DNA of 44,499 nucleotides from NCBI GenBank assembly GCA_027355945.1, contig DAIEHA010000007.1, forward strand, positions 1-44,499. Direction: 5' to 3'. Under the pieces are notes generated by a model. The model was not told where the DNA came from. It made no database searches and saw nothing but the letters and a program-made list of their open reading frames with translations. Positions 5,511 to 44,498 of the stretch are shown in pieces (position 1 is the stretch's first letter; every line of letters starts with the position of its first letter). The DNA is from Candidatus Parcubacteria bacterium. GTDB taxonomy: Bacteria; Patescibacteriota; Minisyncoccia; UBA6257; 2-01-FULL-56-20. Made by a program: the position numbers and the translations under genes.

Positions 5511-5520
5511 TAGTCGACTT

Positions 5521-17430: not shown

Positions 17431-17909
17431 GTGCGTCCTCCTTCGGTTATAGAGACGTTTCGCAACCCTTCCTTTTTACCGTATCCGAATTTTATCCATA
17501 CAGCACCCCGCGGGATCGCATCCTTTATCCGCTCACCCCATTCAATGAGGACGATGTTCCTCGGATCTTCGAGAAGCTCATCGAATCCGAGCACGGAGAG
17601 ATGGGACGCATCTTTCAATCGGTATGCATCCATATGGAATACGTGTTTCCGTGCCGCCCGCGCGACATAGCGCCGCATGATCACGAATGTGGGGCTCGGG
17701 ACCCGGCGGCGGACGCCCAACCCGTGCAGGAACCCCTGCACGAACGTCGTCTTTCCCGCCCCAAGCTCCCCGGAAAGCACCACGACAGAGGCTCCCTTAT
17801 CCCCCGGGGCCTCCTTCAGAAATCCTTCCGAGAACACCTCGCCGAGGCGTTTCGTCTCCTCCGAGGAGGATGTGCGATAGATAGTCGTTTTTTTTGACCG
17901 CATATGCAA
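17427..17909 (-). CDS. tsaE: tRNA t6A biosynthesis ATPase TsaE
   Basis: GELGAGKTT, SPTFVI, HMDAYRL, LIEWGE. Confidence 0.96.
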   Translation of the reverse strand: MHMRSKKTTIYRTSSSEETKRLGEVFSEGFLKEAPGDKGASVVVLSGELGAGKTTFVQGFLHGLGVRRRVPSPTFVIMRRYVARAARKHVFHMDAYRLKDASHLSVLGFDELLEDPRNIVLIEWGERIKDAIPRGAVWIKFGYGKKEGLRNVSITEGGRT

Positions 17910-18483
17910 ATAAGAGCATTATGACCGCGCCAAGACCCATTGCCGAAGCCGCAACCGATGCCGGCCCGGTCCCCGGATATCCAAGAGGAATGCCGATCCC
18001 GTACCGCGGCGGTGCCACAACATTCCCGAACGCCGCATTCGCGGACCCCGGCGTGGGATCCGTGAACATGAATATGCCCGCCGCAGCGCCTTCCTCGATG
18101 CGTGAAAAACTTCTCGCTTCTGGCGCAGCGCCCCGGAACGCGGCTTGATCGATGATTGTCCCGTCCGGGCCATATAACAATACTGCCCCATCCGTATTTT
18201 TGAAAGACGGCGCCCCTTCGCTGCGGACCACGAAAAGGTATCCTCTTCCGGGGATGGTCCTGTTCCCGAGCGGGAACGCTTTTGTGCGCGAAGGGACGAT
18301 CGCCGCCCCCCGTTCCGGGGTCGCAGTCCTCGTGCCCGTGCCAAGCGACCATCCATCCAGGCGCACCGCGGCGGGAGCGTCATTGAAAAGTTCGGCAAAT
18401 TCCCCCGAGGCATCGGGACCCGCGGGATTGGGCAGCCATTCATTGATGCGGACCACCGCGTGATCGTACCTCTCCGCGATCAA
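17797..18483 (-). CDS. lamin-tail-domain (LTD) protein with C-terminal TM helix
   Basis: INEWLPNPAGPD..EFAELFN..LDGWSL, PTPGSAN; hydrophobic C-terminal segment; start uncertain; 3' end overlaps tsaE. Confidence 0.75.
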   Translation of the reverse strand: MIAERYDHAVVRINEWLPNPAGPDASGEFAELFNDAPAAVRLDGWSLGTGTRTATPERGAAIVPSRTKAFPLGNRTIPGRGYLFVVRSEGAPSFKNTDGAVLLYGPDGTIIDQAAFRGAAPEARSFSRIEEGAAAGIFMFTDPTPGSANAAFGNVVAPPRYGIGIPLGYPGTGPASVAASAMGLGAVIMLLFAYAVKKNDYLSHILLGGDETPRRGVLGRISEGGPGG

Positions 18484-18562
18484 TAAAGGCTGAAGCCTTT
18501 GCTCCCCGTCGCTGCGTTGTGTGCGGAATGCGGCCCCTTCGGGATCCGCAACGAGGCCCGCC

Positions 18563-19531
18563 TCAGAATATCCTGAACAGAAGCTGCACGAGTACAAGAC
18601 CGATCACGCCGAGGATCGCGACATATGAGAACACGGAGGCATTCGGGAACCCGCCTTTGGGGACGGTCGTCGTGGGGGTATATTCCTCAAGCCGTTCATT
18701 GCCCGCAGCATCGAATGCCCGCACCGCGATGGTATCGGTGAGCGACTGGTCGGTAAGGAGATAGGGGCTTATTGCCCTCTTCCAATTCCATTGGTCCTCG
18801 GGGAGCTTGAGGTTGGAGGAAGGGATCTCGGCGACCTCATAATGATCGATGCCCGTCTGCTTGTCCACGGTCGAAAACGTGGCAAACCATTGATTATTGA
18901 AAAGCGAGGGGTCGCGATATACGCCGATCGCAAAAGGTTCGGGGGGGATGGTGTCATCCTCGAGCGCCTTCTGCCAGGTATCCACCGCTGCGAACTGCCC
19001 CTGCAGCAGCTCCCCGTACTTCGCACCCGCCGTCGTAAGAGGTGCGATCGTCCCCTCGCCGTCGTTCAGCGTCGCTTGGGTGCCGGGAAGGAACGTGAGC
19101 GATGCGTTTTCCGGGGCGGTGGAGGACCCTTCGCTCGTCGATGTGGCAAAGCGGAAATAGATGGTGGCAAGCTTATTGCTGAGCGACGGGTCTCCGGGAA
19201 CGCGTCCGCAATATCCTCCGGGAAGCCCCCCCACGAACGATACGATCCCATACTGCGGATAGATCGTGGGATTCTTCACCCACATGGAGAATATGGAATC
19301 CCCATCGCTCACGGCGACCGCCTGAAGCACGTCCGCCGGATATGCGATGTCCACCTCGGCCGCATTGATGCATTGCGATGCGCCCGTATCAAGACGCACG
19401 CTTACCGGAAAGGTGACGCCCGGCGGATATTTCCCCGTTGCCGGATCGATGTAGATCTGGGCCGCGTGCGCAAAGAAGGGCGCGAACCCCGCATACGCCA
19501 CAATCGCAAGGATGATACCGTTCCTTTTCAT
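18563..19531 (-). CDS. secreted cohesin-domain protein with C-terminal TM anchor (cohesin 2)
   Basis: Signal peptide (FAHA), GVTFPVSVRLDT..INAAEVDIAYP..SIFSMWV..SFVGG, Ig-like DTIPPEPF..GIDHYEV, terminal TM. Confidence 0.8.
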   Translation of the reverse strand: MKRNGIILAIVAYAGFAPFFAHAAQIYIDPATGKYPPGVTFPVSVRLDTGASQCINAAEVDIAYPADVLQAVAVSDGDSIFSMWVKNPTIYPQYGIVSFVGGLPGGYCGRVPGDPSLSNKLATIYFRFATSTSEGSSTAPENASLTFLPGTQATLNDGEGTIAPLTTAGAKYGELLQGQFAAVDTWQKALEDDTIPPEPFAIGVYRDPSLFNNQWFATFSTVDKQTGIDHYEVAEIPSSNLKLPEDQWNWKRAISPYLLTDQSLTDTIAVRAFDAAGNERLEEYTPTTTVPKGGFPNASVFSYVAILGVIGLVLVQLLFRIF

Positions 19532-19563
19532 TTATATTAAAATTATATCACACGGAGCGGGGG

Positions 19564-20724
19564 TCATCCCGTCCAATAGTAGAGAAGGATGCTCAGATCC
19601 GAAAGGTCCACCACGCCGTCGCCGTTCAGGTCCGCGGTGGGATTGCTGGTCCCCCAATAATAAAGGAGTATCGAGAAATCCGCGAGGTTCACCCTGCCGT
19701 CGCCGTTCAGGTCCGCAAGCAGCTTTTTGCTCGGCGTACCGCTGCCCACGTAAAAAGGCACTGCCTGGCTTATCGTGCTCCGCAGCGTCGCACCGTTCTC
19801 CATCGTAATGAAATCGGCGTCCACCGTATGATAAGCATCGTTCTGAAGCACCGACGTATCCACGGGCACCATCCATCCTCCCCCAGCGTTCGTACTCGTC
19901 GTCACCACGATATTACCCCCGGAATGCACATGTACCTCGATGGTTGACGACGGCACGGATTCCCCGGACACCGTCACGACACCTCCTTTCGCCACTTGGC
20001 GTTTATCGATGGATATCGTCGGAGGAAGAAGTTCACCGGAGATCGTGGTCGCGGCGTCCGCGGTGACGGTGAACGTCGTCGTGAGCGCGATCGACTTGAG
20101 CCCGGTCGAATCCTGGGCCCATATGCCGAATGTATATACCCCCGGGGAGATGTTCGTCGTCGAAAAATAGAAGTTCGCATTGGAATCGGCCTGGACGACG
20201 CCGATCGCCTGTCCGTCCTGGAGGATGTTCACGCTCGCACCCGGATATGCCTGTCCTTGGATGACCACGGTCGTAGGATTCGGCGCGGTGTAGCTTCCCG
20301 GAGAATAACCGAACGAGGGCGCGGGCGCGGGGCCGGGACCCGGCTGGGGCGCGAGCGACGTGATCTGGCACGTCGCCGAGCATCCGTACCCCGGCACTCC
20401 GTTCATCGCGCCGGCATCGCATTGCTCCCCGTACTGAGGCTGGAGGATCCCGTCGCCGCAATACGGCGCCCACGCCCGGCATCCCGGCATGCACTGCCGA
20501 TTGGCCGTCGACGTGGAATACTGCCCCGTGTTCGTCCCGGTGTCGCACACTTCGGTGGGGGCCTGCACGATGCCATCCCCGCACACACTGATCGTCACGG
20601 TGGTCGTTGCATAGCTCTGGGCGCGCGCCGGGCTTATCGGCCGCACCGAAGGGAACAGCGCTGCCGCCATGGCTGCCGCGGCGGAGAATATGCCTATGGA
20701 GCGCAGGGATGGCCGGCGGATCAT
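19564..20724 (-). CDS. secreted dockerin-domain protein with two Cys-rich CGDG repeats and two Ig-like domains
   Basis: C-terminal duplicated Ca-binding motifs DLNGDGRVNLADF / DLNGDGVVDLSDL; CGDGIVQ..EVCD and CGDGILQ..EQCD; start ATG 20724. Confidence 0.85.
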   Translation of the reverse strand: MIRRPSLRSIGIFSAAAAMAAALFPSVRPISPARAQSYATTTVTISVCGDGIVQAPTEVCDTGTNTGQYSTSTANRQCMPGCRAWAPYCGDGILQPQYGEQCDAGAMNGVPGYGCSATCQITSLAPQPGPGPAPAPSFGYSPGSYTAPNPTTVVIQGQAYPGASVNILQDGQAIGVVQADSNANFYFSTTNISPGVYTFGIWAQDSTGLKSIALTTTFTVTADAATTISGELLPPTISIDKRQVAKGGVVTVSGESVPSSTIEVHVHSGGNIVVTTSTNAGGGWMVPVDTSVLQNDAYHTVDADFITMENGATLRSTISQAVPFYVGSGTPSKKLLADLNGDGRVNLADFSILLYYWGTSNPTADLNGDGVVDLSDLSILLYYWTG

Positions 20725-20732
20725 ATGGATAA

Positions 20733-21737
20733 TTATGCCCTCGGCGCGTGCGGAGGAGGAGGCGTCGGAATACCCTTCTTTCGGCGGCGGCTTCGGAAAA
20801 ATCCTCGGATGAAGAAAAGGATCGCCCAGAGCACAAGCAGTATTCCTGCGAGGACCGCGAATGTGATGAGCTTCTCCTGCCATGGCAGGACGAGGAAGTT
20901 GTAAGGGATGTATCCGGGGATGCTTCCGGGCGGCAGCACGCTGAGGTCGAGGGTGCCCTGTCCGATAAGATCGCTATCATCCCTTCCGTAGATCTGATAG
21001 AAAACCTTGTAGGTTCCTTGGGGTAGATAGGTGGGCATCTCCGCGGTCACGGTCTTCGTCTGGAACGGATCGACGCTTGCAAGCCAATTCGTGTTCTGTT
21101 CCACCTCGAGCACCTTCTGCGTGAGATAATCGCTGTAGGTAAATACCACTTTTTCCGGACTTCCCGAGATGTTCCCGTCGTTCTCGATATCCATATTGAA
21201 CAGGACCTTGCCCGGGAAATGCATCCATAACCACGTGAACCCCTGTTCTGCGTTCGTCATCGACACGCGCCGCACTTTGAAATTGACGTTCTTCTCATTG
21301 ATGACGCGGAGGTTCACATCGATCTGCGCACCGATCGTGAGACCGACGGTCCCCGCTACGGGGCCGCTCATCGGAGAGACGACGACCTGGATGTTCCCCT
21401 GATACTGTCCGAGCTTCGCATTGCTCGGCACGTTCACGCTCACGATCATCGGCATCTCCTGGGTGCCCGAGGGCATCGCGAACTGCATGCCCTTATCGAT
21501 GGAAATCCAGCTTTCCGCGCCGGGGACGTTGATCGTCACTTTTGCGGTAAGGTCCTGGTCCGGCGCTCCGCGCACAAGGAGGATCCTCTGTTCATAATGA
21601 GAGCCTGGTGCGAGCGCATCGTTCGTCACATAAGGAGGAGTGATGCCGAACCCCTCGGCATCCGTCCGATGCACGCCGAACGGAAAACCGGCGCACACCA
21701 TAAGCGCCGCCGCCGCTATGAAGATCATCTTCCTCAT
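20733..21737 (-). CDS. divergent DUF916/WxL-interacting-like protein, membrane anchored
   Basis: Signal peptide, FGITPPY..LAPGS, SWISI, VNVPSNAKLGQYQGNI, IENDGNI, C-terminal TM plus basic tail. Confidence 0.65.
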   Translation of the reverse strand: MRKMIFIAAAALMVCAGFPFGVHRTDAEGFGITPPYVTNDALAPGSHYEQRILLVRGAPDQDLTAKVTINVPGAESWISIDKGMQFAMPSGTQEMPMIVSVNVPSNAKLGQYQGNIQVVVSPMSGPVAGTVGLTIGAQIDVNLRVINEKNVNFKVRRVSMTNAEQGFTWLWMHFPGKVLFNMDIENDGNISGSPEKVVFTYSDYLTQKVLEVEQNTNWLASVDPFQTKTVTAEMPTYLPQGTYKVFYQIYGRDDSDLIGQGTLDLSVLPPGSIPGYIPYNFLVLPWQEKLITFAVLAGILLVLWAILFFIRGFFRSRRRKKGIPTPPPPHAPRA

Positions 21738-21810
21738 TAGTCCGTGAAAAAAAGAACCCCGTGAACGTTTCGATAATTATAGCACAGCAACAACGGGACC
21801 GCGTCCGGTA

Positions 21811-23661
21811 CTACCAGTACTGTGCGGGGCTCTTCACGCCAATGAACGTGTTCTGCCCGGTATAGGCGCCCGAAAGCTGGATGGTGCTCGGCACCGCGAT
21901 TCCCCAGAAGGTCGATCCCGTGTTCGGCGAGGATGTGGCGGTCGATTTGGGGATCTGGATCGGCACAAGGGTCCCCGGATTCGTAAGAAGGGTTGCGCCC
22001 GAACCGTATGCGACGGTCGACGTGGCGTACTGTATCTGCCCCACCGGAATGGTCGAGGTGGTGGAGACGGCGCAGCTCGGATAGGTGGTACACATATTCG
22101 CGCCATACAGGGTCTCGTTCAGACCGACGTTCCCCGTCGATGCAAGGATCGTGGATGTTGCGAGTGTCGGCGTGCTGGAGCCCGGGCTCAAACCGCCGAA
22201 ATTGATCGCGGGGGTATCGAGCTGGGCCGCGAGGAAGCTCGCAACCTTGTTGCCGACCGCAGATTCCGTAAGCGGGCTCGATGACCCGTTATGGTTCGTC
22301 GCTTGCGCGCTCACGAGCCAGTTCTGATTGTAATATTGCGTATCGCTCGCGGTCGTACCGTCCGTGGGGTCTGCGACGTACCAAAGCGGGAAATAGCAGG
22401 TCCATGTCGCACTGATGGAGCTCGATCCATTGCACGATGCGGCATCCTGCGTACAGGTGACGGGCCACGTGGAGGATCCCACCGCCTCGGGGTAGCAATT
22501 ATCAGGATTGTAATTCGGTCCGGTCTGGCACGCTGCCTGGCCAATGCCCGAACGATACACGTTGATGAGGGCCGAGGTGATCTCCTGTCCTCCGGTGATC
22601 GTCTGACAGCTGTTATCGTCCGATACGGTGAACTTCACTGCGAATCCGTTCGTCTGCCCGTTGGGCACCGTGAGCGCAAGGGGGTTCGTGCTTCCGTCGG
22701 TGTTCAGAAGGCTTATGCTCGACGATGCGATCGTGGGAGCCACGCTGCTTATGGCGTATGTGGACGTCGCTCCCTCCGCACCACCCAATGCGGGAAGTCC
22801 GTGTTGATCCACGACGTATCCATAGGAAGGATAGGAACCGTCGGGGCGCGGCAGCGGGGTCGTATAGGAACAGGTGGGATTCAGGGTCGTCGTTGCGGAG
22901 GTGCAGTATGTCCCCGCGGGACCGCAGACCGAACCCGTGAAGTCGTTGGCTTTACAGACGAAAAGCTGAATGGTGTCGGTTGCTCCCGTGAACGTGTCGG
23001 TATCCGATGCGACCGCCGTCCAGCTGATGAGCGTACCGGGGTTCACCGGGCCGGTGTTCGAGATGGACGCGAAGATCGGAGGATGGTTCACCACGAAAGG
23101 CGATCCCGTCGTATATGTCGGGTTGCATTTGGCGCCGCCGAGATTGTTGTCGCAGATCCACGCATACCATGAATCGAACTGGGGATCGCTGCTCGACGCG
23201 GTATAGGTCGTCGTCGCCGTGGCCGTGCTCGGCGTGACCGCGGATACGCCCCACTGGTTGACGGTGCCGCCGCCGCACGTAGGCGAACCCCCTGACGTAC
23301 CGGGGGTCGGCGTGCTCGTCGATTTACAGAGAAGGAGGTAGTAGCTGTCGTTGTTGGGATCGGTCGCCACGGCATACCACGTCACTTTGCTCCCCACGTT
23401 CGTCGGTGCGGTGGTGGTGGACACCGGATTCTCGTATGCATTCGTCGTCCAGTTGGGCGGCGTATTGAGCACCGTCACCGTCGTCGTCGCCGTGCTTTGG
23501 GCGAACGTAAAGCGGGCATGATAGAGGGCTCCCGTCGTCCAGAAGTTCACCACGATGGCAACGACCGCCACAAGGATGCCCGAAAGAATCACGGCCATGC
23601 TCACGCGGCCCTTCACATCACGGACTCTCTCTTTCCACCAGGCGATCCAGCGAACGATCAT
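21811..23661 (-). CDS. secreted Cys/Thr-rich protein with C-terminal WxL/pilin-like domain (class B)
   Basis: N-terminal hydrophobic segment, two similar Cys-containing Ig-like repeats, C-terminus INFGGLSPG...FWGIAVP...GAYTGQNTFIGV. Confidence 0.75.
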   Translation of the reverse strand: MIVRWIAWWKERVRDVKGRVSMAVILSGILVAVVAIVVNFWTTGALYHARFTFAQSTATTTVTVLNTPPNWTTNAYENPVSTTTAPTNVGSKVTWYAVATDPNNDSYYLLLCKSTSTPTPGTSGGSPTCGGGTVNQWGVSAVTPSTATATTTYTASSSDPQFDSWYAWICDNNLGGAKCNPTYTTGSPFVVNHPPIFASISNTGPVNPGTLISWTAVASDTDTFTGATDTIQLFVCKANDFTGSVCGPAGTYCTSATTTLNPTCSYTTPLPRPDGSYPSYGYVVDQHGLPALGGAEGATSTYAISSVAPTIASSSISLLNTDGSTNPLALTVPNGQTNGFAVKFTVSDDNSCQTITGGQEITSALINVYRSGIGQAACQTGPNYNPDNCYPEAVGSSTWPVTCTQDAASCNGSSSISATWTCYFPLWYVADPTDGTTASDTQYYNQNWLVSAQATNHNGSSSPLTESAVGNKVASFLAAQLDTPAINFGGLSPGSSTPTLATSTILASTGNVGLNETLYGANMCTTYPSCAVSTTSTIPVGQIQYATSTVAYGSGATLLTNPGTLVPIQIPKSTATSSPNTGSTFWGIAVPSTIQLSGAYTGQNTFIGVKSPAQYW

Positions 23662-23714
23662 ATCGGGATTGTTTTATTCATTATATCCCATGTTGTCCCC
23701 AGAAAAAGGCCAGG

Positions 23715-23723
23715 TTATCCACA
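23715..23723 (+). promoter_or_regulatory. perfect DnaA-box 9-mer upstream of the 21811..23661 gene
   Basis: TTATCCACA in the intergenic region; minus-strand TATAAT lies between it and the ATG. Confidence 0.55.
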
Positions 23724-23763
23724 CCTTGTACAAAGTCGCCTCTTTCGGGGCGAATATCCCCTG

Positions 23764-24966
23764 CTATTTATAGCGTATTGCCTCGAGCGGACTTATGGAC
23801 GATGCCCTTCGCGCGGGGAATATTCCCGTAATGAAACCCACGAGAGCCGAGAAAACCGTGATAAATCCGAGGAAAGGCAGCGGGAATGCGAAAAGCGCCA
23901 CCGCAGCACCGCCAAAATGCGTAGCCACAAGGTTTAATAGGTAGTTGATGATGAGACCTCCGGCGATGCCTATGGCCATCCCCGTCATGCCTCCAAGAAA
24001 ACCGACCACGACCGCTTCCGCGAGGAAAAGAAACTGGATGTCCCGGGGCGACCCCCCGATCGTACGCATGACGCCGATCTCCCCCGTACGCTCGAGGAGC
24101 GTCACCGTCATGGTGTTCACCATGCCGATCGCCGATACGATAAGTGCGATACCCCCGAACCCGGCAAGGACCCACTGGACGCCGGTGAAGATCTGGTTTG
24201 CCTGGTCCACCGTCTTCGAAAGCGCCGAGACCACATAGCCGGCCTTCACGATGGCGGCCTGGACGCCGCCCAGATTGCCGCTCGCGTTCACGCGCACCTG
24301 CACTTTGTCGTACTGCTGGATCCCCACCTGGGAGGAAAGCGTGGCGAGCGGGATCATCGCATAGATGGAGGCGCTGTCATTCGTCACCCCCGTCACGGTG
24401 AAATTGCCGTTCAGAGGAACCTGCTCGCTCTGTCCCCCGTTTTGGGCCTGCGTCACGATCCGGAACGATACCGGTTTCCCGATGATCGCCTTCGGATCGC
24501 TCACGCCGAAAAGCTGCAGCGCCGCGCTTGAAAGAATGACGTCGTTCCCGTCCGACGGCTGGTCGGTGAACGGGCTCCCGGCCGCCATGGCAATACCGGC
24601 ATATTTGAAATACGACGCCTGTGAGCCCTCGAGGTCCGTGTTCGCCGAGAGGCCGTTGTAGGTGATGAGCGATTGGAACGTTGCAAGCGGCGAGACGTCC
24701 TGGACGTTCGGGATCGCTTTGAACTTCGCGAGTGCGCCATCGTCGAGGGCCACGGCGCTCGTCGCCGGTGGCGTGACGGTGAGACTGAGCAGCGTATCCC
24801 CGAACACGATCTTCTCGAGCAGGATGTTCTGGAGGCCGAACCCGAGGCCCACGAGCATCACGACCGCCGCAGTGCCCACGCCCATACCAAGGATCGTAAG
24901 CCACGTCCTCGCGGGATTGGTCTTGAACATCCTCGTGGAAAGCTTCAGTGAATCGGCGATCCTCAT
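23764..24966 (-). CDS. MacB/FtsX-family ABC transporter permease
   Basis: RTWLTILGMGVG, large extracytoplasmic domain, GMVNTM..LERTGEIGVMRTIG, FPARRASSISPLEAIRY. Confidence 0.93.
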   Translation of the reverse strand: MRIADSLKLSTRMFKTNPARTWLTILGMGVGTAAVVMLVGLGFGLQNILLEKIVFGDTLLSLTVTPPATSAVALDDGALAKFKAIPNVQDVSPLATFQSLITYNGLSANTDLEGSQASYFKYAGIAMAAGSPFTDQPSDGNDVILSSAALQLFGVSDPKAIIGKPVSFRIVTQAQNGGQSEQVPLNGNFTVTGVTNDSASIYAMIPLATLSSQVGIQQYDKVQVRVNASGNLGGVQAAIVKAGYVVSALSKTVDQANQIFTGVQWVLAGFGGIALIVSAIGMVNTMTVTLLERTGEIGVMRTIGGSPRDIQFLFLAEAVVVGFLGGMTGMAIGIAGGLIINYLLNLVATHFGGAAVALFAFPLPFLGFITVFSALVGFITGIFPARRASSISPLEAIRYK

Positions 24967-26296: not shown

Positions 26297-26306
26297 GATG
26301 ATTCGA

Positions 26307-27788: not shown

Positions 27789-27839
27789 GTTGTTATGATA
27801 CCACACGCACGGGCATCGCCCCGTGCCACACCTCCTCGT

Positions 27840-34362: not shown

Positions 34363-34399
34363 ATTATATCTAAGTATACCACACCTCTTCGCCGCTCCC

Positions 34400-36088: not shown

Positions 36089-36100
36089 CCTTTTATGGTA

Positions 36101-36544
36101 TCACGCCGCGGTCGGCGTTTCCTTCCCTTGTCCCATCCCCCTCTCCATGCGTTCGCGCCGTGCCCCGAGGTGGAAACTGAGTCCGACAAAAAACGCAGCG
36201 ATCCCCACCGCCACCATGAGATACCAGGGCACCGCCGAAGACGATGCGGGAGATCCCTTCGCCGCTTGGGATGCAAGCGCAGCCTTCTGGGACGCAAGGT
36301 CCGCAGCCTCCATGTCGAGCTGGGTCTTTTCCTGGCTCAATTGCGCGTTCAAAGTATTATACGGATTCGGCGCAACACCCACGACCACGCCCACCTGCGC
36401 AAGCATGCTCTTCGCCGGCGCAAATCCTCCCGGCGTTCTTGCGATGAAAAAGGTGCTTCCCACGACGACCGTTACGGCCGCCGCCATGAGTATCGTTCCT
36501 ATCCTTGCGTGTGGCATGCGCATGCCGGAAGCAGGACTATCCAA
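36101..36544 (-). CDS. small membrane protein with two TM segments and a short coiled coil
   Basis: Hydrophobic N- and C-terminal segments flanking NPYNTLNAQLSQEKTQLDMEAADL; start uncertain. Confidence 0.7.
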   Translation of the reverse strand: MDSPASGMRMPHARIGTILMAAAVTVVVGSTFFIARTPGGFAPAKSMLAQVGVVVGVAPNPYNTLNAQLSQEKTQLDMEAADLASQKAALASQAAKGSPASSSAVPWYLMVAVGIAAFFVGLSFHLGARRERMERGMGQGKETPTAA

Positions 36545-37640
36545 AGAAGAAGAACAGGATCATCAGGAATATGATCGCGAAGACCACCGTCGCCACGAGG
36601 ATGAAGACAAGGCGGGAGAACGGAAGCCTTCCTTCAGCGAGGAGTCGCTCCTCGGCGGAGATGGATGCTGCATTGCCCTGGCGGCCCCCGGTCATGGCCG
36701 CGATCCGCCTCCTCACATACGCCCTCACGCCCCAGATGAATCCGAAGACGATAAGCACGAGGATGATGAGAAGTGCGAGTATCGGCACGATCGGGATGAT
36801 CCAGAAGGAGGTCTCCTGGGACACCGTCTTCTGGGCGTTATCCCCGTAGGTAAGGGACATCACCGCATCGAACCTCCCCATCATGAACCCTCCGCTCGTC
36901 CAATTCACCGTGAATGTCCGGTCCTGTCCCGGAAAGATCGCGTCATTCGAATCATTCATGATGACCGTCCCCACCTTCTGTCCGAACATGTTCGTGATAT
37001 CGATCGGGCCGCGCGGGCGGAGCAGGACATTCCCGGTATCGGCCGCATCTGCCGCAAACGTCACGTTCGCATCCTGATAAAGACCCTTGTCCGTGGAGAA
37101 AGAACGTATCTCTGCCGTCTCATTCGCCTGTCCCGCGATCCTGAAATCGAGGAGCGAACCCACCTCATACCCGATGCCGGTCCCCGTAAACTGAGGGCGC
37201 GTGGCGCCATAGGTCACGAAAATCGCCCCATAATGGCCGCCGGGGGCGGCGGTCGAGGGGACGTTCACGGTGAACGGTACGATGACGGCCCCGCCTGCGG
37301 GGATGGTGATCACCGGACTCTGGATGCTCACCCAGGAAGTGATGCCGTATTCGGGCACCGAGGAGCTGCTGAACACCGGTTCGCCACCGCTGTTGAGGCC
37401 CGAGATGTCCTTCACGCTCACCGTGTAGGTCCGCGATACGGGATCCGGATTCGTGACGGTGATCGATGTCGAAAACTTATCGCCGGGATTCACGATCTGC
37501 TGGAAGATCGCGGGCTGCACCTTCACCCCTGTCGCATTGGCTCCCGGGGTTCCCGGAGCGGACTGCGCGAATGCGATCCCTCCAATAAGAGTCGCGACGG
37601 CTGCACCGGCAAGGACCGCTCCCCACGCCTTTTTCTTCAT
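36537..37640 (-). CDS. DUF916/WxL-interacting-like membrane-anchored protein
   Basis: VKVQPAI..VNPGD..ITVTN, ITSWVSI..IPAG..VPFTVNVPSTAAPGGHYGAI, DTGNVLLRPRG; two C-terminal TM helices. Confidence 0.8.
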   Translation of the reverse strand: MKKKAWGAVLAGAAVATLIGGIAFAQSAPGTPGANATGVKVQPAIFQQIVNPGDKFSTSITVTNPDPVSRTYTVSVKDISGLNSGGEPVFSSSSVPEYGITSWVSIQSPVITIPAGGAVIVPFTVNVPSTAAPGGHYGAIFVTYGATRPQFTGTGIGYEVGSLLDFRIAGQANETAEIRSFSTDKGLYQDANVTFAADAADTGNVLLRPRGPIDITNMFGQKVGTVIMNDSNDAIFPGQDRTFTVNWTSGGFMMGRFDAVMSLTYGDNAQKTVSQETSFWIIPIVPILALLIILVLIVFGFIWGVRAYVRRRIAAMTGGRQGNAASISAEERLLAEGRLPFSRLVFILVATVVFAIIFLMILFFFFG

Positions 37641-37688
37641 TACATGCATCGTATCATGCGCCGCCGCACCCTTTCAAGCCTTGAGGGC

Positions 37689-38822
37689 TTAGAAGGTCGG
37701 GGTTGCGACGTAGATGAGGTTGTTCGTGTAGTCGTTCGCGGCAGGCTGCAATGTACCGATCTCGATCCGATAGGCCACCTTCGCGGTTCCCACGTTCTGC
37801 GTCGTTCCGTCCGCAGGACCGTTCCATGCGAACACGGTGAGCGTGGAGGTGGGATTGATGCTGCCGGCATAGAGCGGCGTGGACGTACCGAAGCTTGGCG
37901 CACCGACGATCGAACTGCTCACATCGTCGCTCGTGACGCCGAGATGGCCGTAGGTCGCAGGCTGATTGATGACGTTGCTCGGCGCGGCCCACGGACTCGG
38001 CGTGGATGTCGCATTGCCGTTATCGAAAAGATGGATGGTGTTCCCCGTCTGGCTCGTAAGGTCCTGGTCCTCGTGGACGGTCACCGCAAAGCCGTTTGCG
38101 GCGTTCGTCGTCACATACAGCTGCTGACCGAGCTCGGCGTGGGTGTTCGGTGAGATCACGCCGAATGGGACCGTGGTCGAGGTGGATGCGCCCGTCGTCG
38201 TTGCGCCGTTTCCAAGCGTCGTGGAGGTCGCAAGCCCCGCCACCGTAAAGGTGAAGGTCGTAGCAACCGCCGCCGTCACATTGACGCCATTCACGATCGC
38301 GACGCGGGTTGCCGCGGAATTCGTGCCTGCCGCGACGTTTATCACATAGGACCCGGTGCTCGTCGGGTTCGTGATCGTATTATTCAAAACTTTGAGGGTG
38401 ACCGTTCCCGCGGGGATCGTTGCGCCGCCGCATACGGTGAATACAAGGGAGTTCGTGGTGGTCGCCACGCTGACATTGTTACCTCCGTTGTTACAGGTAT
38501 ATCCGGTGATGGTCATCCCGGTCGAAGTCACATCTGCAAGCACGACGCCGCCTACGTTGCCGAATGCGCTCGTGTTGGGATCGAAGGTATACGTGATCGT
38601 CTGCCCCGTCAACGTGCTCGTCGAATCAGTGAATACTATCGTATGATTCGCTGCAAACCCCGGGCGGGAATCGGACAATGTGTCGCTCACTGAAGTAAGG
38701 CTCACTGCGTGGGCGGTGTTCACAAATCGAAGCATCGTGCTCCACGAAACAAGACTTACGATCAGACCTGCTGCGACCGCGATTGCGACATCGCGATTTG
38801 TCATCGTCCTTTTACTAAACAT
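37689..38822 (-). CDS. secreted two-domain WxL/pilin-like protein (class A), candidate major subunit
   Basis: Signal peptide (TAHA), Thr-rich beta domains, VPFGVI..VTTNAANGFAVTV..., C-terminus DYTNNLIYVATPTF; own promoter. Confidence 0.75.
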   Translation of the reverse strand: MFSKRTMTNRDVAIAVAAGLIVSLVSWSTMLRFVNTAHAVSLTSVSDTLSDSRPGFAANHTIVFTDSTSTLTGQTITYTFDPNTSAFGNVGGVVLADVTSTGMTITGYTCNNGGNNVSVATTTNSLVFTVCGGATIPAGTVTLKVLNNTITNPTSTGSYVINVAAGTNSAATRVAIVNGVNVTAAVATTFTFTVAGLATSTTLGNGATTTGASTSTTVPFGVISPNTHAELGQQLYVTTNAANGFAVTVHEDQDLTSQTGNTIHLFDNGNATSTPSPWAAPSNVINQPATYGHLGVTSDDVSSSIVGAPSFGTSTPLYAGSINPTSTLTVFAWNGPADGTTQNVGTAKVAYRIEIGTLQPAANDYTNNLIYVATPTF

Positions 38823-38889
38823 TGGATACTCTTTGTTGAAAGAGGGGTTTGCTTTTTTATTCGACTTGTATTCATTCTATCACAACAGG

Positions 38890-38920
38890 TTATCCACATC
38901 GCAAGGGGTACTTATCCACA
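38890..38920 (+). promoter_or_regulatory. tandem perfect DnaA-box 9-mers in the promoter of the 37689..38822 gene
   Basis: TTATCCACA at 38890-38898 and 38912-38920, same orientation and 22 bp apart; minus-strand TGnTAGAAT just downstream. Confidence 0.65.
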
Positions 38921-38952
38921 GGCGCTCAAGAATGCGCGCACTCGGTCCGCGA

Positions 38953-40062
38953 TCACTTCTTTCGAAGGTCGACTGTCCCCTTCGGATCGCTTCGCGGAAC
39001 CTGCGGACGAGGAGGTTCGTGCGGCGCACTCGGTCCCGAAGAACCATATCTTCCCATCTCGCGTTCGAGCATCTTCTTCACGTATCGACGGAGCAATATC
39101 ACAAACCCTCCTATGACAAGAAGTGCGATCACGCCGTCCTCCGCGAGCATTCCGAGCGGCAGGACCCAGAATGTGAGGGTCTGGGACACGCTCTTCGTCC
39201 CATCGACGCCATAGGCAAGGGTCACTATTGCGGTAAAACGCCCGATATCCCATAGATTTCCTGGGCCCTGCCATTCTTCGCTGAACTTACGGCTGCTCGA
39301 TGGCAGCACGTATCCGAACGTCTCCTCTTGGTTCACCGGGACCGTTCCCTCCTCCTTTCCGAACGCATTATAGATCTGGATCTCCCCCACCGGACGCACA
39401 TGGACGTTGCCGGTGTTCGCGAACACCAGATTGAAATTCACATCCGGCCGCTGATAGAATCCTTTGTCCGTGGAAAATTCCTGGATGTTCCCGGATTCCT
39501 TTATATCCCCCGATACGGTGACGAATATGAGCGCCGAGATGAAGCTCGATATGCCGATATGCGACCCCGACGCGGGAGACCCCTCCGGCGATTGAGTCCC
39601 GATCAGGATACCGGCGTAATGTCCTCCCGGGGATGCGTCTTTCGGGATGTTGATCGAAAAAGGGACGTCAGCCGCGCTTCCCGGCGGCACCACCGCGGTG
39701 GACGATCCGAGTGTTATCCAGTTCGCCAAGGCGTCGGGATCTCCCGCAATCTCCGAAAGATTCTTGAAGGTGCCATGACCCTCCTGATCTGAGGGCGCAA
39801 ATCCCATCACGGTCGCCACCACGGGAAGCGGCGCCGCATTGGTGTTCACCACGCGGATCGAACTCGCCCATGCGTCCCCCGGCGATGCGTTCAACGTAAA
39901 GAACGGGGGGGTGATGGTGAGCGATGTCGCATCGGCCGACTGGGCCGCCGCACGGGGAAGGAAGCACGGCGCACCTGCCGCAAGCGCGACGAGGATGAGC
40001 ACCGCACCTGCCGCAGCGCGGCGCGCATTCGCAAACGTCATTGTGTGCGTAGCATCATTCAT
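38953..40062 (-). CDS. DUF916/WxL-interacting-like membrane-anchored protein
   Basis: LTITPPF..ASPGD..IRVVN, LANWITL..VPPG..VPFSINIPKDASPGGHYAGI, NTGNVHVRPVG; C-terminal TM. Confidence 0.8.
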   Translation of the reverse strand: MNDATHTMTFANARRAAAGAVLILVALAAGAPCFLPRAAAQSADATSLTITPPFFTLNASPGDAWASSIRVVNTNAAPLPVVATVMGFAPSDQEGHGTFKNLSEIAGDPDALANWITLGSSTAVVPPGSAADVPFSINIPKDASPGGHYAGILIGTQSPEGSPASGSHIGISSFISALIFVTVSGDIKESGNIQEFSTDKGFYQRPDVNFNLVFANTGNVHVRPVGEIQIYNAFGKEEGTVPVNQEETFGYVLPSSSRKFSEEWQGPGNLWDIGRFTAIVTLAYGVDGTKSVSQTLTFWVLPLGMLAEDGVIALLVIGGFVILLRRYVKKMLEREMGRYGSSGPSAPHEPPRPQVPRSDPKGTVDLRKK

Positions 40063-41059
40063 GATGGTGGGGGTGCTTCAGGTCTATCACCTGCTTGTTC
40101 TTCAGAAGATGCTCGATGAGTTGGCGCCTGCGATGATGCCGCTTCGCATATCCTCGATGCATGAACACGGCGGCCGCGATCACAAGAATGAGCAATATGA
40201 TGAAGATCACGAACAGCTCCTTCCATGGAAGGATCCAGAAGAGCGCCGTATCCGCGAGCTGGGCGTTCTGCGCTCCATAGGTTGCTTCCAATCCTACCTT
40301 ATATTCCCCCATGCTGCCGCCCGCACCATTCCATGTGGCGGTGAACTGCTTGGTGGTTCCCGGCGCGATGGAATCGCCGCCTGGATTCACGGACACCGAC
40401 CCGAGCTCGTGGCCGATGCGATCATAGAAGATCACGTCCCCTCCCGGATCCGATGGGATGTCGCCCGTGTTCTTGATGGCGTAATCGACCGTCATCGGGA
40501 ATCCCGATGATATTCTTTTTTCCGGACCGAAACTCACAAGCTGAAGTTCCTCTTTGAGATCGGAGATGACCGTGAAGTTCACGAGTGCCTGAGGGGCGCC
40601 ATTAAGATTCTTCTCCGCCTCGTCCCTCGTCCCTCCCTCCACAAAGGCAACCACGGCATGATAATCCCCCGCCGTCGCATACGGATTGATCGTCACGTTC
40701 ATGGGAATGGTCTTGGTCTCTCCGGGAGCGAAGATCATCGCCCCGCGAGAGATCCCGATCCAGTCGGCAAGGAGCTCCGGCCTGTTGGAACTCGCCGGAT
40801 CTATGAAGGGTTGCGTTCCGCTCGCGGTAAGTTCGTATACCGATGCAAAGATGTTGAGCTGCCTGCCGCTCGTGTTCGTGACCGTGAGGGTGTAGTTGAA
40901 CATGTCATCCGGGATCCCGTTCCCATCGATCACCGCGGGTGCGACCGTAAGATCCGCGGCATGCGCAACGCGCGTGGCGAATGCGCCCGCCGCAGCGGAA
41001 AACGCCGCGATGGCGACGATGAGCAGGAGCAGGTGTTTCATATTCTTCTTCATTGTCAT
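40055..41059 (-). CDS. DUF916/WxL-interacting-like membrane-anchored protein
   Basis: LTVAPAV..LTVTN, LADWIGI..APGETK..ATAGDYHAVV, NTGDIPSDPGG; C-terminal TM plus basic/His tail. Confidence 0.78.
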   Translation of the reverse strand: MTMKKNMKHLLLLIVAIAAFSAAAGAFATRVAHAADLTVAPAVIDGNGIPDDMFNYTLTVTNTSGRQLNIFASVYELTASGTQPFIDPASSNRPELLADWIGISRGAMIFAPGETKTIPMNVTINPYATAGDYHAVVAFVEGGTRDEAEKNLNGAPQALVNFTVISDLKEELQLVSFGPEKRISSGFPMTVDYAIKNTGDIPSDPGGDVIFYDRIGHELGSVSVNPGGDSIAPGTTKQFTATWNGAGGSMGEYKVGLEATYGAQNAQLADTALFWILPWKELFVIFIILLILVIAAAVFMHRGYAKRHHRRRQLIEHLLKNKQVIDLKHPHHHE

Positions 41060-41066
41060 GGCGTCA

Positions 41067-44000
41067 TCAGAAGACGGGGGTTGCGATATAGATCACGTTA
41101 TCGTTGTAGTTCCCGTTCACCTGCGTCAGTCCCGCTTGAACGCGGTATACGACATTGATCGTGCTCGTGGCGGGTCCGCTCGAATATCCTATCTCCGCCG
41201 GCGTGGACGTGAGCGCGGCATATGAATCGTCCGCGGCGAACCGCGTCGATCCTCCCGAGAGCACCGGACTTCCCGGATGATACCCGTAGCAGGCCGTTGA
41301 GGTCGCGGTGCACGCCGATGACCATGGCAGCGGACTTCCGTTCGTGGCATCCACGCCCGGCAGGATATAGCCGCGTCCGTTCATGAGCGGCGCATCCTGG
41401 AACGCGTACAGTTCGAACCCGTTGGGCGCATCGGTCGAGATGAGAAGCTGCTGCGCCGCCATGGAGCTTGTGGCGATCGTGAGCGTTCCAAACGAGATCC
41501 CCGCCGGTGTGGATGATGCGGTCGTTACGACGCCGTCGGTCGAAGTCCCTTGCGGCATGCCGCTCACCGTAAAGGTGAGGAGCGCCCCTTCCACCGCAAG
41601 ACTTGGATACGATGAGGTGCTGTAAAGTGCCACGGGTGCTCCGGTGCCGTTGTTCACAAGGCGGAAGAAATAGGTCGCGTTCGTCGTCGCACCGTCCCCG
41701 ACGATGGTGAACTCGTACTCGGTGATGGCGCTCGCCTGCTGCGCAAAGGTCGAGGAGCTTATTCCCGATGTGTTGTGCGTACCGCATCCCGGTCCCACGC
41801 CGCTCGCGCATGCATTCGAGTCTGAAAGCACCGCGGTCGAGATCACTGCATTATCCGTACCCCCCGTCGATGTGGCATAGCACCATTGCGACGCAGAGGT
41901 GCAACTCCCCGTCTCCGCGACATACCCCACCCCTGAGGAAAAATTGCTATACGTGGAATATTGAAGTCTGAACTTCACATCGCTCCCCGAAACATTGTTC
42001 GCCTCCGCTACCGCCACGCGAAGCTTGATGATGCTCCCGTTCTGCGCGGTCGAGGGCGCGACATTCTCCCCCGCGAGCGGGTTCACCGGCGTCTCATCGT
42101 TCGCGTCGCCGTAAAATCTCCAGTTCGCCGATTCCGGGTTGAACGGCGCCGTCGTCACGGCAGGATAATATACGTATGAATCGAGTGGCGTCCCGCTGCT
42201 CTTCACCATGCGGAAGCAATACGATGCCGAGGAGCTCGTGCTGTTGTATTGGAGCGCCCAATCATATTCGATGTTGTCCCCGATAAGCGAACGATAGGGG
42301 TTCGCCGCGGATGGATTGGCATCCGTATACACACCGTCGCGCGTGGATACGGAGAGCAGGAGCGTGGTGAGCGGCGTACCGTTCGCCACGCCCGCATTCG
42401 CATATCCGGTCCATGGCCCCGCGCCGCCGATCGCGCCCACGTCGCTCCATGATGCGACCGCGCTGCACGACGTCGTCATCACCCCGTACTGCAGCTTGAA
42501 TGCCTGCGTTGATGTCGGGAGCACCGCGCCGCCGAGCGTCACCGCCATGCGAAGACGCAGCACGCTTCCGTTCGTCGGAGGAGAATCCGCGGCCGTGATC
42601 GCCATATTCTCCCCGAGCGTCGACGTGCCCGCGGGCCACGCCGCGGTCGGCGTGAGCGCGTTCGCATTCGTATACCACCGGTAATAGTTCTCTGCGAACG
42701 TGGAGCTCGCGGCGATCACGCTTATCTGAGGATAGACAGTATACGTACCGATCGACGCCCCGTTGTTCGTCGCTTGAAAGTAATATGTCTGCCCGAAGGA
42801 AGCGCCCTCCGTCGCCTGGATGTTCCATTCGAGCTCCGTGAATTGATTCGTGTTGAGCGTGATCACCGGCGCAGGGGTCGTGCTTTCCAGCATGAAGCCG
42901 CTCACGAATGCCGCTGCCGCCGGAGTGAGAAGATTGTGGGTCGGATCAAGATCTGCGAAATATCCCGATGGACATTCGCGGAACGCCGCGGCGATCGTAG
43001 AACAGGTGGGGTCGACGGGCACGGGGGTCCACGGCCCCGCCGTGGAGGTCGCATATTCCAGACGGAACGCCGCGCTTGCCGCAACATTCCCGTTATTGGA
43101 AAATTCCATGCGCAGCCGCACGCTCGTGTCCTCTGTCGTGCTCGTCGGGGTCGTTTCCGCGGCGCGCCATGTCGCCGAGGGAACCGTGTCCACCTCGGGG
43201 TAGTTCACGTAGCCGTCAAGTGAGGCCCCTGCGCCGGTCATCATGCGGAAACAATATGCCGCACCGGAGGATGCATCGTTGTCCTGCACGACGAAATCCC
43301 ATTCGCCCGCCCCGTTCGCGGGAATGGGGTTCGGGTTCGTCGGCGAGGGATTCTGCTCCACGTACGATTCGGGGACGGTGGAGCTCGCGAGGAGCGTTGC
43401 GGCGAGCGTCGTACCGTTCGTCGTGCCCGCATTGCTGTAGCCGCGCCACGGCACGGACGATCCTGATGCTCCGACATCCGCAAAATTCGCCGATGGCACT
43501 CCGCTGCACGATGCCGCGGTTCCTTTGGGTGCATATTGCAGCTTGAACGATTGCGTGGAACTCGGGAATGCCGCGCCGCCCACCGCGATATTCATCACGA
43601 TCCTCACCGCCCCTCCCGAGACGGTTCCTGTCGCCGCAACGTCCGGCGCGGCGAGCGAGGATGTTGGTTGGACCGCGTCGGCATTTTTGTATATCTGGAA
43701 ATCCTGCTGAGTGAGCGTGGCCGAGGGCATTGCGGTGAACCCCCCAAGCCCCACCCCCGTCGCAGGTCCCACGGTGCCCGCCGCAACCGTGACGTTCGCC
43801 GAGGGATTCGCGATCGTAAGCTCGAAGGTCTGGCCTCCGGGAGAGGAGGATGCGATATCCACTTTTGCATAGATGCAGACGTTCGCGGTACCCACGGGCA
43901 TGGTGCCCGTCACGGTCGCTTGTTCCGATGCATTGAATGAGCCTCCTGTTGCGTTGAAGAGGGTCGCTCCCGCAGGGATGCTCGAGGTGGCGCAGGTGGT

Positions 44001-44498
44001 CGACGCCTGATAATAGAGGGCGAGGTTCCCGAGGTATGCGTTCGCGTTCAGGGTGCCCGAGGCGGTCACTGCGATCTGCGTGACGTTCGTGGAACCGGAA
44101 TCCCTCGCCATCGTGAATGCGCCGCCGGTGTAGAAGCCGGCTGCGGGGACGGTCGTCGTCGCGAACTGGGATCCCGTCGCTCCCACCGCGACCGAGGCGG
44201 GGGCATAGGTGATGACGATGATGCCCTGGGTGCCTGCGGCGCCGGCGCCCGCGACGCACCCGGCATTCGCGCATCCTCCTCCGCCGCCTCCACCCGCACC
44301 CCGTACACCCGCAACGCCGCCGCCCGCACCCGCATTCGTTTTGAAATTCGCACCTCCTCCTCCGCCGCCTCCTCCACCGGACCCGTATGTGGTCCACTCT
44401 GTGCCGGCTGTTCCGGTGCTGCCCACGACAGTGGTACGGCCGCCGGTCCCTCCTCCTCCGCCTGCACCGCCAAAAGTACCATCGCCCTGCCCGCCCGT
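41067..44498 (-). CDS. large adhesin-like surface protein, 5' partial: Gly-rich domain, four about 160-190-aa repeats, class A WxL/pilin-like C-terminus
   Basis: Frame stays open to the window edge (TGGQGDGTFGGAGGGGG...); C-terminus GNYNDNVIYIATPVF paralogous to the 37689..38822 product. Confidence 0.85.
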   Translation of the reverse strand, partial: TGGQGDGTFGGAGGGGGTGGRTTVVGSTGTAGTEWTTYGSGGGGGGGGGANFKTNAGAGGGVAGVRGAGGGGGGGCANAGCVAGAGAAGTQGIIVITYAPASVAVGATGSQFATTTVPAAGFYTGGAFTMARDSGSTNVTQIAVTASGTLNANAYLGNLALYYQASTTCATSSIPAGATLFNATGGSFNASEQATVTGTMPVGTANVCIYAKVDIASSSPGGQTFELTIANPSANVTVAAGTVGPATGVGLGGFTAMPSATLTQQDFQIYKNADAVQPTSSLAAPDVAATGTVSGGAVRIVMNIAVGGAAFPSSTQSFKLQYAPKGTAASCSGVPSANFADVGASGSSVPWRGYSNAGTTNGTTLAATLLASSTVPESYVEQNPSPTNPNPIPANGAGEWDFVVQDNDASSGAAYCFRMMTGAGASLDGYVNYPEVDTVPSATWRAAETTPTSTTEDTSVRLRMEFSNNGNVAASAAFRLEYATSTAGPWTPVPVDPTCSTIAAAFRECPSGYFADLDPTHNLLTPAAAAFVSGFMLESTTPAPVITLNTNQFTELEWNIQATEGASFGQTYYFQATNNGASIGTYTVYPQISVIAASSTFAENYYRWYTNANALTPTAAWPAGTSTLGENMAITAADSPPTNGSVLRLRMAVTLGGAVLPTSTQAFKLQYGVMTTSCSAVASWSDVGAIGGAGPWTGYANAGVANGTPLTTLLLSVSTRDGVYTDANPSAANPYRSLIGDNIEYDWALQYNSTSSSASYCFRMVKSSGTPLDSYVYYPAVTTAPFNPESANWRFYGDANDETPVNPLAGENVAPSTAQNGSIIKLRVAVAEANNVSGSDVKFRLQYSTYSNFSSGVGYVAETGSCTSASQWCYATSTGGTDNAVISTAVLSDSNACASGVGPGCGTHNTSGISSSTFAQQASAITEYEFTIVGDGATTNATYFFRLVNNGTGAPVALYSTSSYPSLAVEGALLTFTVSGMPQGTSTDGVVTTASSTPAGISFGTLTIATSSMAAQQLLISTDAPNGFELYAFQDAPLMNGRGYILPGVDATNGSPLPWSSACTATSTACYGYHPGSPVLSGGSTRFAADDSYAALTSTPAEIGYSSGPATSTINVVYRVQAGLTQVNGNYNDNVIYIATPVF

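Follow-up and report, generated by a model that had tools for sequence, protein, structure and literature searches.

A probable chaperone-assisted pilus locus with a putative cohesin–dockerin anchor in a Candidatus Parcubacteria bacterium

Attachment to other cells is the presumed way of life of bacteria of the Candidate Phyla Radiation (CPR, or Patescibacteria), and its means are largely unknown. The systems that come closest to the subject of this paper are the Pam pili of a CPR bacterium, the WxL/Elr pili of Enterococcus faecalis and the TLP-1a/b fibrils; the subject itself is a locus of about 27 kb (positions 17797–44498) in a stretch of DNA from a Candidatus Parcubacteria bacterium (contig DAIEHA010000007.1 of assembly GCA_027355945.1; 44,499 nucleotides, referred to throughout as the window). 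The reading favoured here, which we consider rather probable, is that the locus encodes a chaperone-assisted donor-strand-exchange pilus of the same kind as the Pam and WxL/Elr pili, laid out in two modules; the pilus would apparently be fastened by a cohesin–dockerin plug instead of a sortase. An earlier annotation of the same DNA by a model (the original prediction) had proposed a surface-assembly system built from WxL-like subunits, DUF916-like partners and cohesin–dockerin pairs, an interpretation that is partly supported by the analysis described below.

Pam pili were described in Candidatus Mycosynbacter amalyticus, a member of the CPR (Troman et al., bioRxiv 2026.03.03.709456 v2, PMC13278184). 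According to the available part of that preprint, two CPR pilins sharing the same two-domain plan have been solved, transmembrane (TM)-anchored PapD-like chaperones are predicted together with a tip pilin and a TM terminator, and the pili are reported mainly from Saccharimonadia and Microgenomatia; DUF916, WxL, dockerin, cohesin and ABC are not mentioned in its main text (PMC13278184). The WxL/Elr pilus is known from E. faecalis and from the csc/WxL clusters of Bacillota, where WxL pilins polymerise by donor-strand exchange once a DUF916/DUF3324 chaperone anchored in the membrane has primed them (Sleutel et al., bioRxiv 10.64898/2026.10.17.759780). The accessible text of this second preprint confines the system to Bacillota, on the basis of a screen in which each genus was represented by one RefSeq proteome, and does not mention the CPR; in the parts available, the two preprints are silent on each other's systems. 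The TLP-1a/b fibrils, obtained from pond water (CryoSeek, PMC11494351), are also counted among the closest known systems. The description ‘undescribed’ in the original prediction has been overtaken by these two 2026 preprints, and what appears to be new here is the cohesin–dockerin coupling, the pilin family and the ABC and Hsp20 additions. Judged mostly from titles and the beginnings of abstracts, no literature joining dockerin or cohesin to such a pilus was found, and searches for WxL or DUF916 in Patescibacteria/CPR gave nothing relevant among the matches listed.

The window is one contig (C25) of a 734,791-base, 27-contig genome that is rated 91.8% complete, and the locus takes up about 3.6% of it. 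The 18 open reading frames (ORFs) between 17797 and 44498, designated g1 to g18, all lie co-directionally on the minus strand and have the content that had been predicted, including two dockerin proteins (g3 and g13), an ABC permease and ATPase pair (g6 and g7), an Hsp20 protein (g12), an FN3 protein (g8) and a lamin-tail-domain protein (g1), each with a Pfam match. The predicted lack of a catalytic domain, a sortase and an LPxTG protein was also borne out: neither a catalytic nor a carbohydrate-binding Pfam family was found above cut-off in the 18 proteins, sortase PF04203 had no match in the genome and the LP.[TSA]G motif is absent from all 18 proteins. A hydrophobicity scan of the locus proteins was consistent with export signals and C-terminal TM anchors. 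The ORFs are separated by short gaps or overlap, with the exception of a 448-bp gap between g14 and g13, and as the g18 ORF is open at the end of the window the locus continues past 44498.

The link between the locus and both described pili lies in a set of four membrane-anchored proteins: g14 (36537–37649), its paralogues g16 (38953–40062) and g17 (40055–41059), and g4 (20733–21737) in the second module. A candidate WxLIP/PapD-like chaperone is g14, which has beta domains at residues 43–171 and 179–284, two TM helices and a predicted donor strand at about residues 157–166 (TGIGYEVGSL). Each of the four has an N-terminal hydrophobic segment (a signal segment in g17 and g4) and a C-terminal TM segment. 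Pairwise comparison with g14 gave E values of 2.8e-49 for g16 and 2.7e-28 for g17, and profile comparison with hhalign gave 5.7e-75 and 8e-47, respectively; g4, a distant member, matched g14, g16 and g17 at E values of 1.9e-12 to 1.7e-14. That the four DUF916-like, TM-anchored proteins of the original prediction form one family is thus confirmed at the level of sequence comparison. Direct matches to PF06030 (DUF916) are sub-threshold in the window (19.2 bits for g14 and 18.2 bits for g16, against a cut-off of 27.3), and matches at E≤0.01 were found in 15 of 16 g14 orthologues (two above cut-off), 6 of 11 g16 orthologues (one above cut-off), 1 of 11 g17 orthologues and none of nine g4 orthologues. 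The profile of the family also matches EfmWxLIP1 (E 2.4e-5), and in a fold search the best match to the g14 model among solved structures was the Enterococcus faecium WxLIP, with an alignment that covers both domains (residues 40–286). Sequence profile and fold together support the view that these DUF916-like partners are real relatives of the WxL-interacting proteins. As in Elr, then, the chaperone is a membrane-anchored protein of DUF916 type, and as in Pam several chaperones of PapD/FimC-like type are present, all of which have a TM helix at the C-terminus. Unlike Elr, there is no sequence match to DUF3324 (PF11797) in the genome at E≤1, and unlike the classical chaperone–usher pili (Pap, Fim, CFA/I and Caf1) the genome has no match to the usher (PF00577) or to PapD_N, the chaperone is membrane-anchored and the cell is monoderm. 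NCBIfam gave no match for either the subunits or the chaperones.

The gene next to g14 encodes g15 (37689–38822), a candidate two-domain pilin of 377 aa with a signal peptide, and a model of mature g15 with the g14 ectodomain was made with a separate family alignment for each protein and with three controls. In agreement with the predicted pairing of a subunit with its DUF916-like partner, the three g14–g15 runs scored ipSAE values of 0.80, 0.77 and 0.79, against 0.00 for the best control, with at least 86% of contacts common to the runs and a partner pLDDT (predicted local distance difference test) of at least 81. Of the solved complexes, 58 of 80 reached the mark used, as did 2 of 110 mismatched pairs; this calibration is only roughly valid for custom alignments. 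In the model, residues 158–166 of g14 lie parallel to, and in register with, the C-terminal strand of g15 (residues 368–375), beside residues 187–196 of g15, whilst residues 38–48 of g14 pair with g15 residues 190–192. The modelled interface is conserved on both sides (G156 at 98% and V163 at 82% in g14; Y371–P375 at 100% in g15). A strand of g14 is accordingly predicted by the model to complement g15 in the manner of donor-strand complementation. The same parallel placement of a chaperone strand against the subunit's C-terminal strand is reported for ElrE with ElrD, and insertion of a chaperone strand into the C-domain of the pilin is likewise predicted for PamC/D.

The AlphaFold2 model of g15 (pLDDT 82.5) shows an N-terminal beta-sandwich domain at about residues 40–180, with strands between 43 and 176 and a conserved Cys110/Cys131 pair, a conserved linker strand at about residues 180–196 with a low-confidence hinge at 182–185, and a C-terminal domain that runs from 190 to 377 (modelled to 375) and ends in the residues YTNNLIYVATPTF. 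The most conserved stretches are the linker (V180, A184 and F192) and the C-terminal strand (Y365 and Y371–P375), and there are invariant residues in both. In its plan the protein resembles the Pam pilins: it comes from a CPR host, it is a putative Sec-exported two-domain pilin of similar size (38.7 kDa for PamB), and the modelled beta-sandwich N-domain, linker strand and truncated Ig-like C-domain correspond to those of Pam, where the N-domain is nine-stranded. Unlike the Elr pilins, g15 has an extra N-domain, and its mature N-terminus, VSLTSVSDTLSDS, does not fit the donor consensus [ST]-x-[GA]-x-[VI]-x-F taken from the available text of the Elr preprint (bioRxiv 10.64898/2026.10.17.759780). 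More than 921 of 8000 candidate proteins are homologues of g15 at E≤0.001; no Pfam family occurs in the 120 matches listed, and where a source is named, as it is for a few of the homologues, it is Paceibacterota or Minisyncoccia. A search of Protein Data Bank sequences with the A1 profile returned no match, and the Pam entries 25PZ and 25QA were absent from the search results. A second g15-type pilin gene (56% identity) lies on contig C11 of the same genome (31103–32140; locus L002), and the genome showed no chaperone gene beyond those in the window; by analogy with PamA/PamB, it may represent a second major pilin served by the same chaperones.

The two domains of g15 recur separately in two neighbouring proteins. 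g18 (41067–44498), a large secreted protein of more than 1143 aa that is 5′-open and has no Pfam family, consists of repeated beta-rich modules followed by a C-terminal domain homologous to that of the pilin, and it shares the C-domain only (BLASTP of g15 190–377 against g18 974–1143, E 4e-13; hhalign E 2.5e-24). In g13 (34400–36088), which is secreted, a pilin-type N-domain is combined with Ig-like domains and, at the C-terminus, a type I dockerin (Dockerin_1, 30.3 bits against a cut-off of 22.9); what this protein has in common with g15 is limited to the N-domain and the beginning of the linker (BLASTP of g15 37–182 against g13 22–185, E 4e-10; hhalign E 5.8e-26). This division of labour would make g18 a candidate tip or adhesin subunit and g13 a candidate terminator or anchor subunit, and it parallels the acceptor-only subunit and the donor-only, membrane-tethered terminator of Pam, which likewise has neither usher nor sortase. 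It also recalls Elr, in which a small and a large subunit have a common C-terminal domain and the chaperone and pilin genes are adjacent. Small g18-like proteins encoded elsewhere begin with repeated SSTDF-type motifs. A further observation is that g18 and g9 (27840–29897) have common repeated beta-rich modules upstream of differing C-terminal domains (hhalign probability 89%, E 2.1e-6).

In Pam the terminator PamR is a single RbmA-like protein with its own TM helix, whereas here the putative terminator g13 ends in a dockerin and the TM helix sits on a separate cohesin protein, g11 (31956–33872). The latter comprises a cohesin (42.6 bits against a cut-off of 24.1), Ig-like domains (Big_13), a TM helix at residues 511–543 and a cytoplasmic tail of about 95 aa, and it may form a membrane socket for the g13 dockerin. 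No single PamR-like protein with both a donor strand and its own TM helix was recognised in the locus, and g13 and g11 could do that job in two pieces. The second module carries a similar couple: g3 (19564–20883; probable start at 20724) is secreted and carries a Cys-rich repeat, an Ig-like domain and, at its C-terminus, a dockerin (Dockerin_1, 39.7 bits against 22.9; also DUF4215, Big_6 and myxo_disulf_rpt), and g2 (18563–19531) combines a cohesin-like domain with a C-terminal TM helix at residues 295–322. The two TM-anchored cohesins of the original prediction are both present, with g11 above the Pfam cut-off and g2 just under it (23.0 bits against 24.1). The g13 dockerin and the cohesins resemble those of cellulosomes, in that a type I dockerin with two Ca-binding repeats stands at the extreme C-terminus and a Pfam cohesin is borne by a cell-bound protein; they differ from them in that there are no enzymes, the dockerin is on a pilin-like protein and the cohesin is TM-anchored, with a single cohesin in each protein, so that neither g2 nor g11 is a multi-cohesin scaffoldin. 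The locus differs from Elr in having neither an LPxTG protein nor a sortase.

The secreted subunits of the second module are g9 (685 aa, mature N-terminus ATTTL, no Pfam family) and g5 (21811–23661, 616 aa, mature N-terminus ATTTVTV), which have a common C-terminal domain (hhalign E 1.2e-36); orthologues of g5 conserve ATTTLTVLNTPP. The four secreted proteins had been credited with one shared style of C-terminal domain. This holds within the g15/g18 pair and within the g5/g9 pair, and the two pairs have a similar terminal motif, but that motif is all they have in common: the pairs are mutually unrelated and profile similarity between their C-domains is undetectable (hhalign probability of about 1% or less). 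In g3, whose mature N-terminus reads ATTTVTISVC, as in g5 and g9, the sequence ATTT[VL] directly follows the signal segment; the three proteins are otherwise unrelated, and the common start would fit an N-terminal donor strand shared within this module.

The assignment of the subunits to the WxL family was rejected, since none of the sequence tests that were run gives it. PF13731 matched none of g5, g9, g15 and g18, nothing in a six-frame search of the genome at E≤1 and none of 29 family members at E≤1. Profile–profile comparison with ten CPR proteins that do match PF13731 gave a probability of 0.7%, which stayed below 1% when profiles of the C-domain only and looser settings were used against the CPR WxL proteins, and 13 short, C-domain-only relatives were found, none of them with a Pfam family. 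The subunits thus differ from those of Elr, and the only pointer towards WxL is a language-model lead (0.87). The terminal motif, Y-x-x-x-hydrophobic, is reminiscent of the WxL motif. In fold searches with the g15 model, no chain of 9i25 (WxLIP bound to a long WxL protein) was among the rows shown, most of which were filled by matches to the N-domain.

Conservation of gene order was studied by scanning species-representative genomes for relatives of g15, which yielded 236 places; from the best 80 of these came 79 distinct loci, onto which the 18 window proteins were mapped by BLAST. Many of these loci are labelled as Paceibacteria-type lineages or Saccharibacteria. The synteny across Patescibacteria by which the original prediction proposed to judge the system was found in two conserved arrangements, g18-g17-g16-g15-g14-g13-g12-g11 and g9-g8-g7-g6-g5-g4-g3-(pilin)-g2-(cohesin), referred to as modules A and B. 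A chaperone gene is present in 73 of the 79 loci (the other six are lone pilin genes), 43 of the 79 have a g18-like gene upstream of the chaperone pair, and a dockerin protein with the N-domain of the pilin is encoded in all 46 loci with at least 4 kb downstream of the g14-like gene. Where at least 8 kb is available downstream, a cohesin was found in 24 of 35 loci and Hsp20 in 22 of 35. In 11 of the 79 loci the g2-type gene is a neighbour of a g3-type dockerin gene, and eight of these 11 have an intervening pilin gene. Compared with Pam, the locus in the window is distinguished by three plus one chaperone paralogues, a very large protein with an acceptor domain, Hsp20 and the MacB-type ABC module.

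Distribution was assessed in an even set of 401 Patescibacteria genomes, with the chaperone count including the unpublished G154. The chaperone family occurs in 198 of these genomes and the g15 family in 77, of which 75 also have the chaperone. PF13731 was found in 25 genomes (above cut-off in ten; the genome studied here is not among the 25), and 24 of them also have the chaperone; 105 of the 198 chaperone-positive genomes have neither a g15-type nor a WxL-type subunit. In 5 of 12 CPR loci with a PF13731 protein (L089, L091, L094, L095 and L099), the next ORF is a chaperone of the g14 family (E 1.6e-22 to 5.9e-7). The chaperone thereby connects the CPR system with that of the Firmicutes, a link that gains support because a true Pfam WxL protein adjoins a g14-family chaperone in these five loci, and the same pairs run counter to the view that no WxL system exists outside Bacillota.

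These features can be combined into a proposed route of assembly. Subunits would be exported by Sec, and the membrane-anchored, two-domain chaperones (g14, g16 and g17, with g4 in the second module) would then cap the open, C-terminal Ig-like domain of the subunit by inserting a strand beside its C-terminal strand, as predicted for g14 with g15. Displacement of the chaperone by a strand of the next subunit would allow g15 to polymerise; in Pam pili it is the conserved inter-domain linker that is donated, and g15 has such a linker. With only an acceptor domain, below large variable modules, g18 could act as an adhesin at the tip or along the fibre, and g13, in which the N-domain of the pilin and the beginning of the linker are present but an acceptor domain is not, could end growth. 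The C-terminal dockerin of g13 might then plug into the membrane-anchored cohesin g11, the pair standing in for the LPxTG/sortase anchor used by Elr or for Pam's TM terminator, PamR. The second module (g9, g5, g4, the g3 dockerin and the g2 cohesin) would repeat this logic, with the addition of a MacB-type ABC transporter and an FN3 protein. By analogy, the likely use of the pilus is contact with a host cell. The original prediction had spoken of a sortase-free fibre for host attachment: sortase and LPxTG are indeed lacking and the dockerin and cohesin genes are conserved in the locus, and the data are best read as a fibre that serves contact with a host.

Several points weigh against the pilus. 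The g14–g15 model resembles many solved chaperone–usher complexes as well as 9i25, and its ipSAE score may partly reflect this likeness. The modelling covers a single chaperone–subunit pair. When g15 is modelled as a monomer, its own domains take up both the N-terminal strand and the linker, so that neither stands out as the donor strand. g15 shows no WxL signal, and its likeness to Pam is one of architecture. Of the 35 loci long enough to include a cohesin, 11 gave no BLAST match to one. Unlike the reported pam operons, which have ATP synthase genes nearby, none of the 79 loci has them within 10 kb, as judged by a crude Walker-motif scan.

An alternative reading is a static arrangement, in which the WxLIP-like proteins permanently anchor single adhesins (g15, g18, g5 and g9) and no fibre is formed. 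This would follow the earlier model of DUF916/DUF3324 proteins as WxL-binding linkers; indeed, the available part of a 2023 paper proposes that DUF916/DUF3324 bind WxL and link surfaces (PMC10599100). There are also four chaperone-like genes for four subunits, and the complex model shows binding rather than exchange. The arrangement is nevertheless judged unlikely, given that the same class of protein acts as a transient chaperone in Enterococcus according to the accessible text of the Elr preprint (bioRxiv 10.64898/2026.10.17.759780), that a parallel, groove-filling strand is the geometry of a chaperone, that an N-domain-only g13 and a C-domain-only g18 make sense in a polymer, and that g15 is highly conserved (66–78% identity in related genomes). 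The strand-complementation geometry and the chaperone-type partner, both known from fibres, also tell against a two-dimensional coat, that is, an S-layer-like or sheath-like lattice held by the TM proteins in place of a thin fibre; the match of the g15 N-domain is to a generic Ig-like sandwich, and such a coat appears very improbable.

The dockerin and cohesin domains are bona fide, and they could belong to a cellulosome-like scaffold that gathers substrate-binding or substrate-degrading proteins at the cell surface for the capture of glycans, the other genes encoding unrelated surface proteins. The available part of a Cell 2023 paper speculates that host glycans are the target of an essential dockerin-domain protein in a Saccharibacterium. 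We regard a scaffold of this type as a most doubtful explanation of the locus, since no catalytic or carbohydrate-binding family was found above cut-off in its 18 proteins, each cohesin protein has a single cohesin and the dockerin protein g13 has a pilin N-domain and follows the pilin–chaperone pair in 46 of 46 loci. Least credible of all is a chance neighbourhood of unrelated surface-protein genes with no joint function: g1, g8, g10 and g12 have no known role and g1 and g10 are not conserved beyond close relatives, but the order of the genes is kept in dozens of genomes from several named CPR lineages, in two arrangements, which makes this explanation hard to hold.

If the locus does encode a donor-strand-exchange pilus, the known range of the chaperone-driven monoderm pilus grows by a further CPR lineage and by a different pilin family. 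More tentatively, and as a possibility to which we give somewhat less than even weight, the Pam and WxL/Elr pili could be branches of one old monoderm pilus superfamily, in which a WxLIP/PapD-like membrane chaperone serves several unrelated pilin families; in the branch described here the covalent or TM anchor would have been replaced by a dockerin-tipped terminator held in a membrane cohesin, and a MacB-type ABC motor would be coupled to a second fibre module. A dockerin–cohesin anchor would be a new, simple and testable use of a well-known protein plug and the first case of such a pair serving as the socket of a pilus.

The remaining genes of the locus lie in and around the two modules. g12 (33760–34455; probable start at 34362) encodes an Hsp20/alpha-crystallin protein (HSP20, 40.9 bits) with no hydrophobic or TM segment. 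g10 (29944–31959) is a low-complexity protein rich in Ser, Thr, Pro and Ala, with an N-terminal TM helix at residues 47–68 and no Pfam family, and its homologues were found in 7 of 79 loci, in close relatives only. g8 (26307–27806), membrane-anchored or secreted, contains FN3 or purple-acid-phosphatase-N-like repeats (Pur_ac_phosph_N, 76.4 bits; fn3, 63.1 bits); a g8-like gene is present in 8 of 79 loci and is located between g9-like and g7-like genes where these exist. The transporter consists of g6 (23764–24966), a MacB-type permease (MacB_PCD, 78.4 bits; FtsX, 54.5 bits), and g7 (24986–26443; probable start at 26296), an ABC ATPase (ABC_tran, 105.7 bits) that resembles LolD, FtsE and MacB, its scores for LolD (182.9 bits) and FtsE (175 bits) each being below the equivalog cut-off. 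The permease has homologues in 8 of 79 loci, always within the order g9-g8-g7-g6-g5-g4-g3. A C-terminal extension of g7 of about 210 aa (residues ~276–485; window positions 24986–25620) matches no family. At the end of the locus, g1 (17797–18597, start codon uncertain) encodes a lamin-tail-domain protein (LTD, 37.1 bits against a cut-off of 34.3) with a C-terminal TM helix at residues 211–235, and no homologue of it was found in the 79 loci, which extend only 10 kb from the pilin gene.

The 448-bp intergenic gap on the 3′ side of the pilin–chaperone pair (36089–36536, minus strand) contains a terminator-like hairpin at 36195–36214, and gaps at the same position in other loci range from a few hundred bases to about 3.6 kb. 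The counts of promoter-like and terminator-like sites in the scanned region were not above those in shuffled sequences, and the hairpin is for this reason a lead only. The first 17.8 kb of the window is occupied by housekeeping genes (TruD, peptide deformylase, Mur ligase, RuvA, CTP synthase, a histidine kinase, a 5′–3′ exonuclease and TsaE). Within it, positions 3800–5900 are low in guanine plus cytosine (0.475 at 4001–6000, against about 0.60 elsewhere) and hold two ORFs without a Pfam family (3825–4583, minus strand, and 4878–5510, plus strand) beside a tRNA-Arg(CCG) gene at 5789–5863; this stretch may be a small foreign insertion at the tRNA. No RNA run was among the runs listed as containing the region 36500–40100, and 77–96% of its sampled words were found in four DNA runs, which come from a single study and bear the label mine drainage metagenome. 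The CPR origin that the original prediction had proposed fits both the genome size of 735 kb and the Patescibacteria-type names on those homologue records that bear names.

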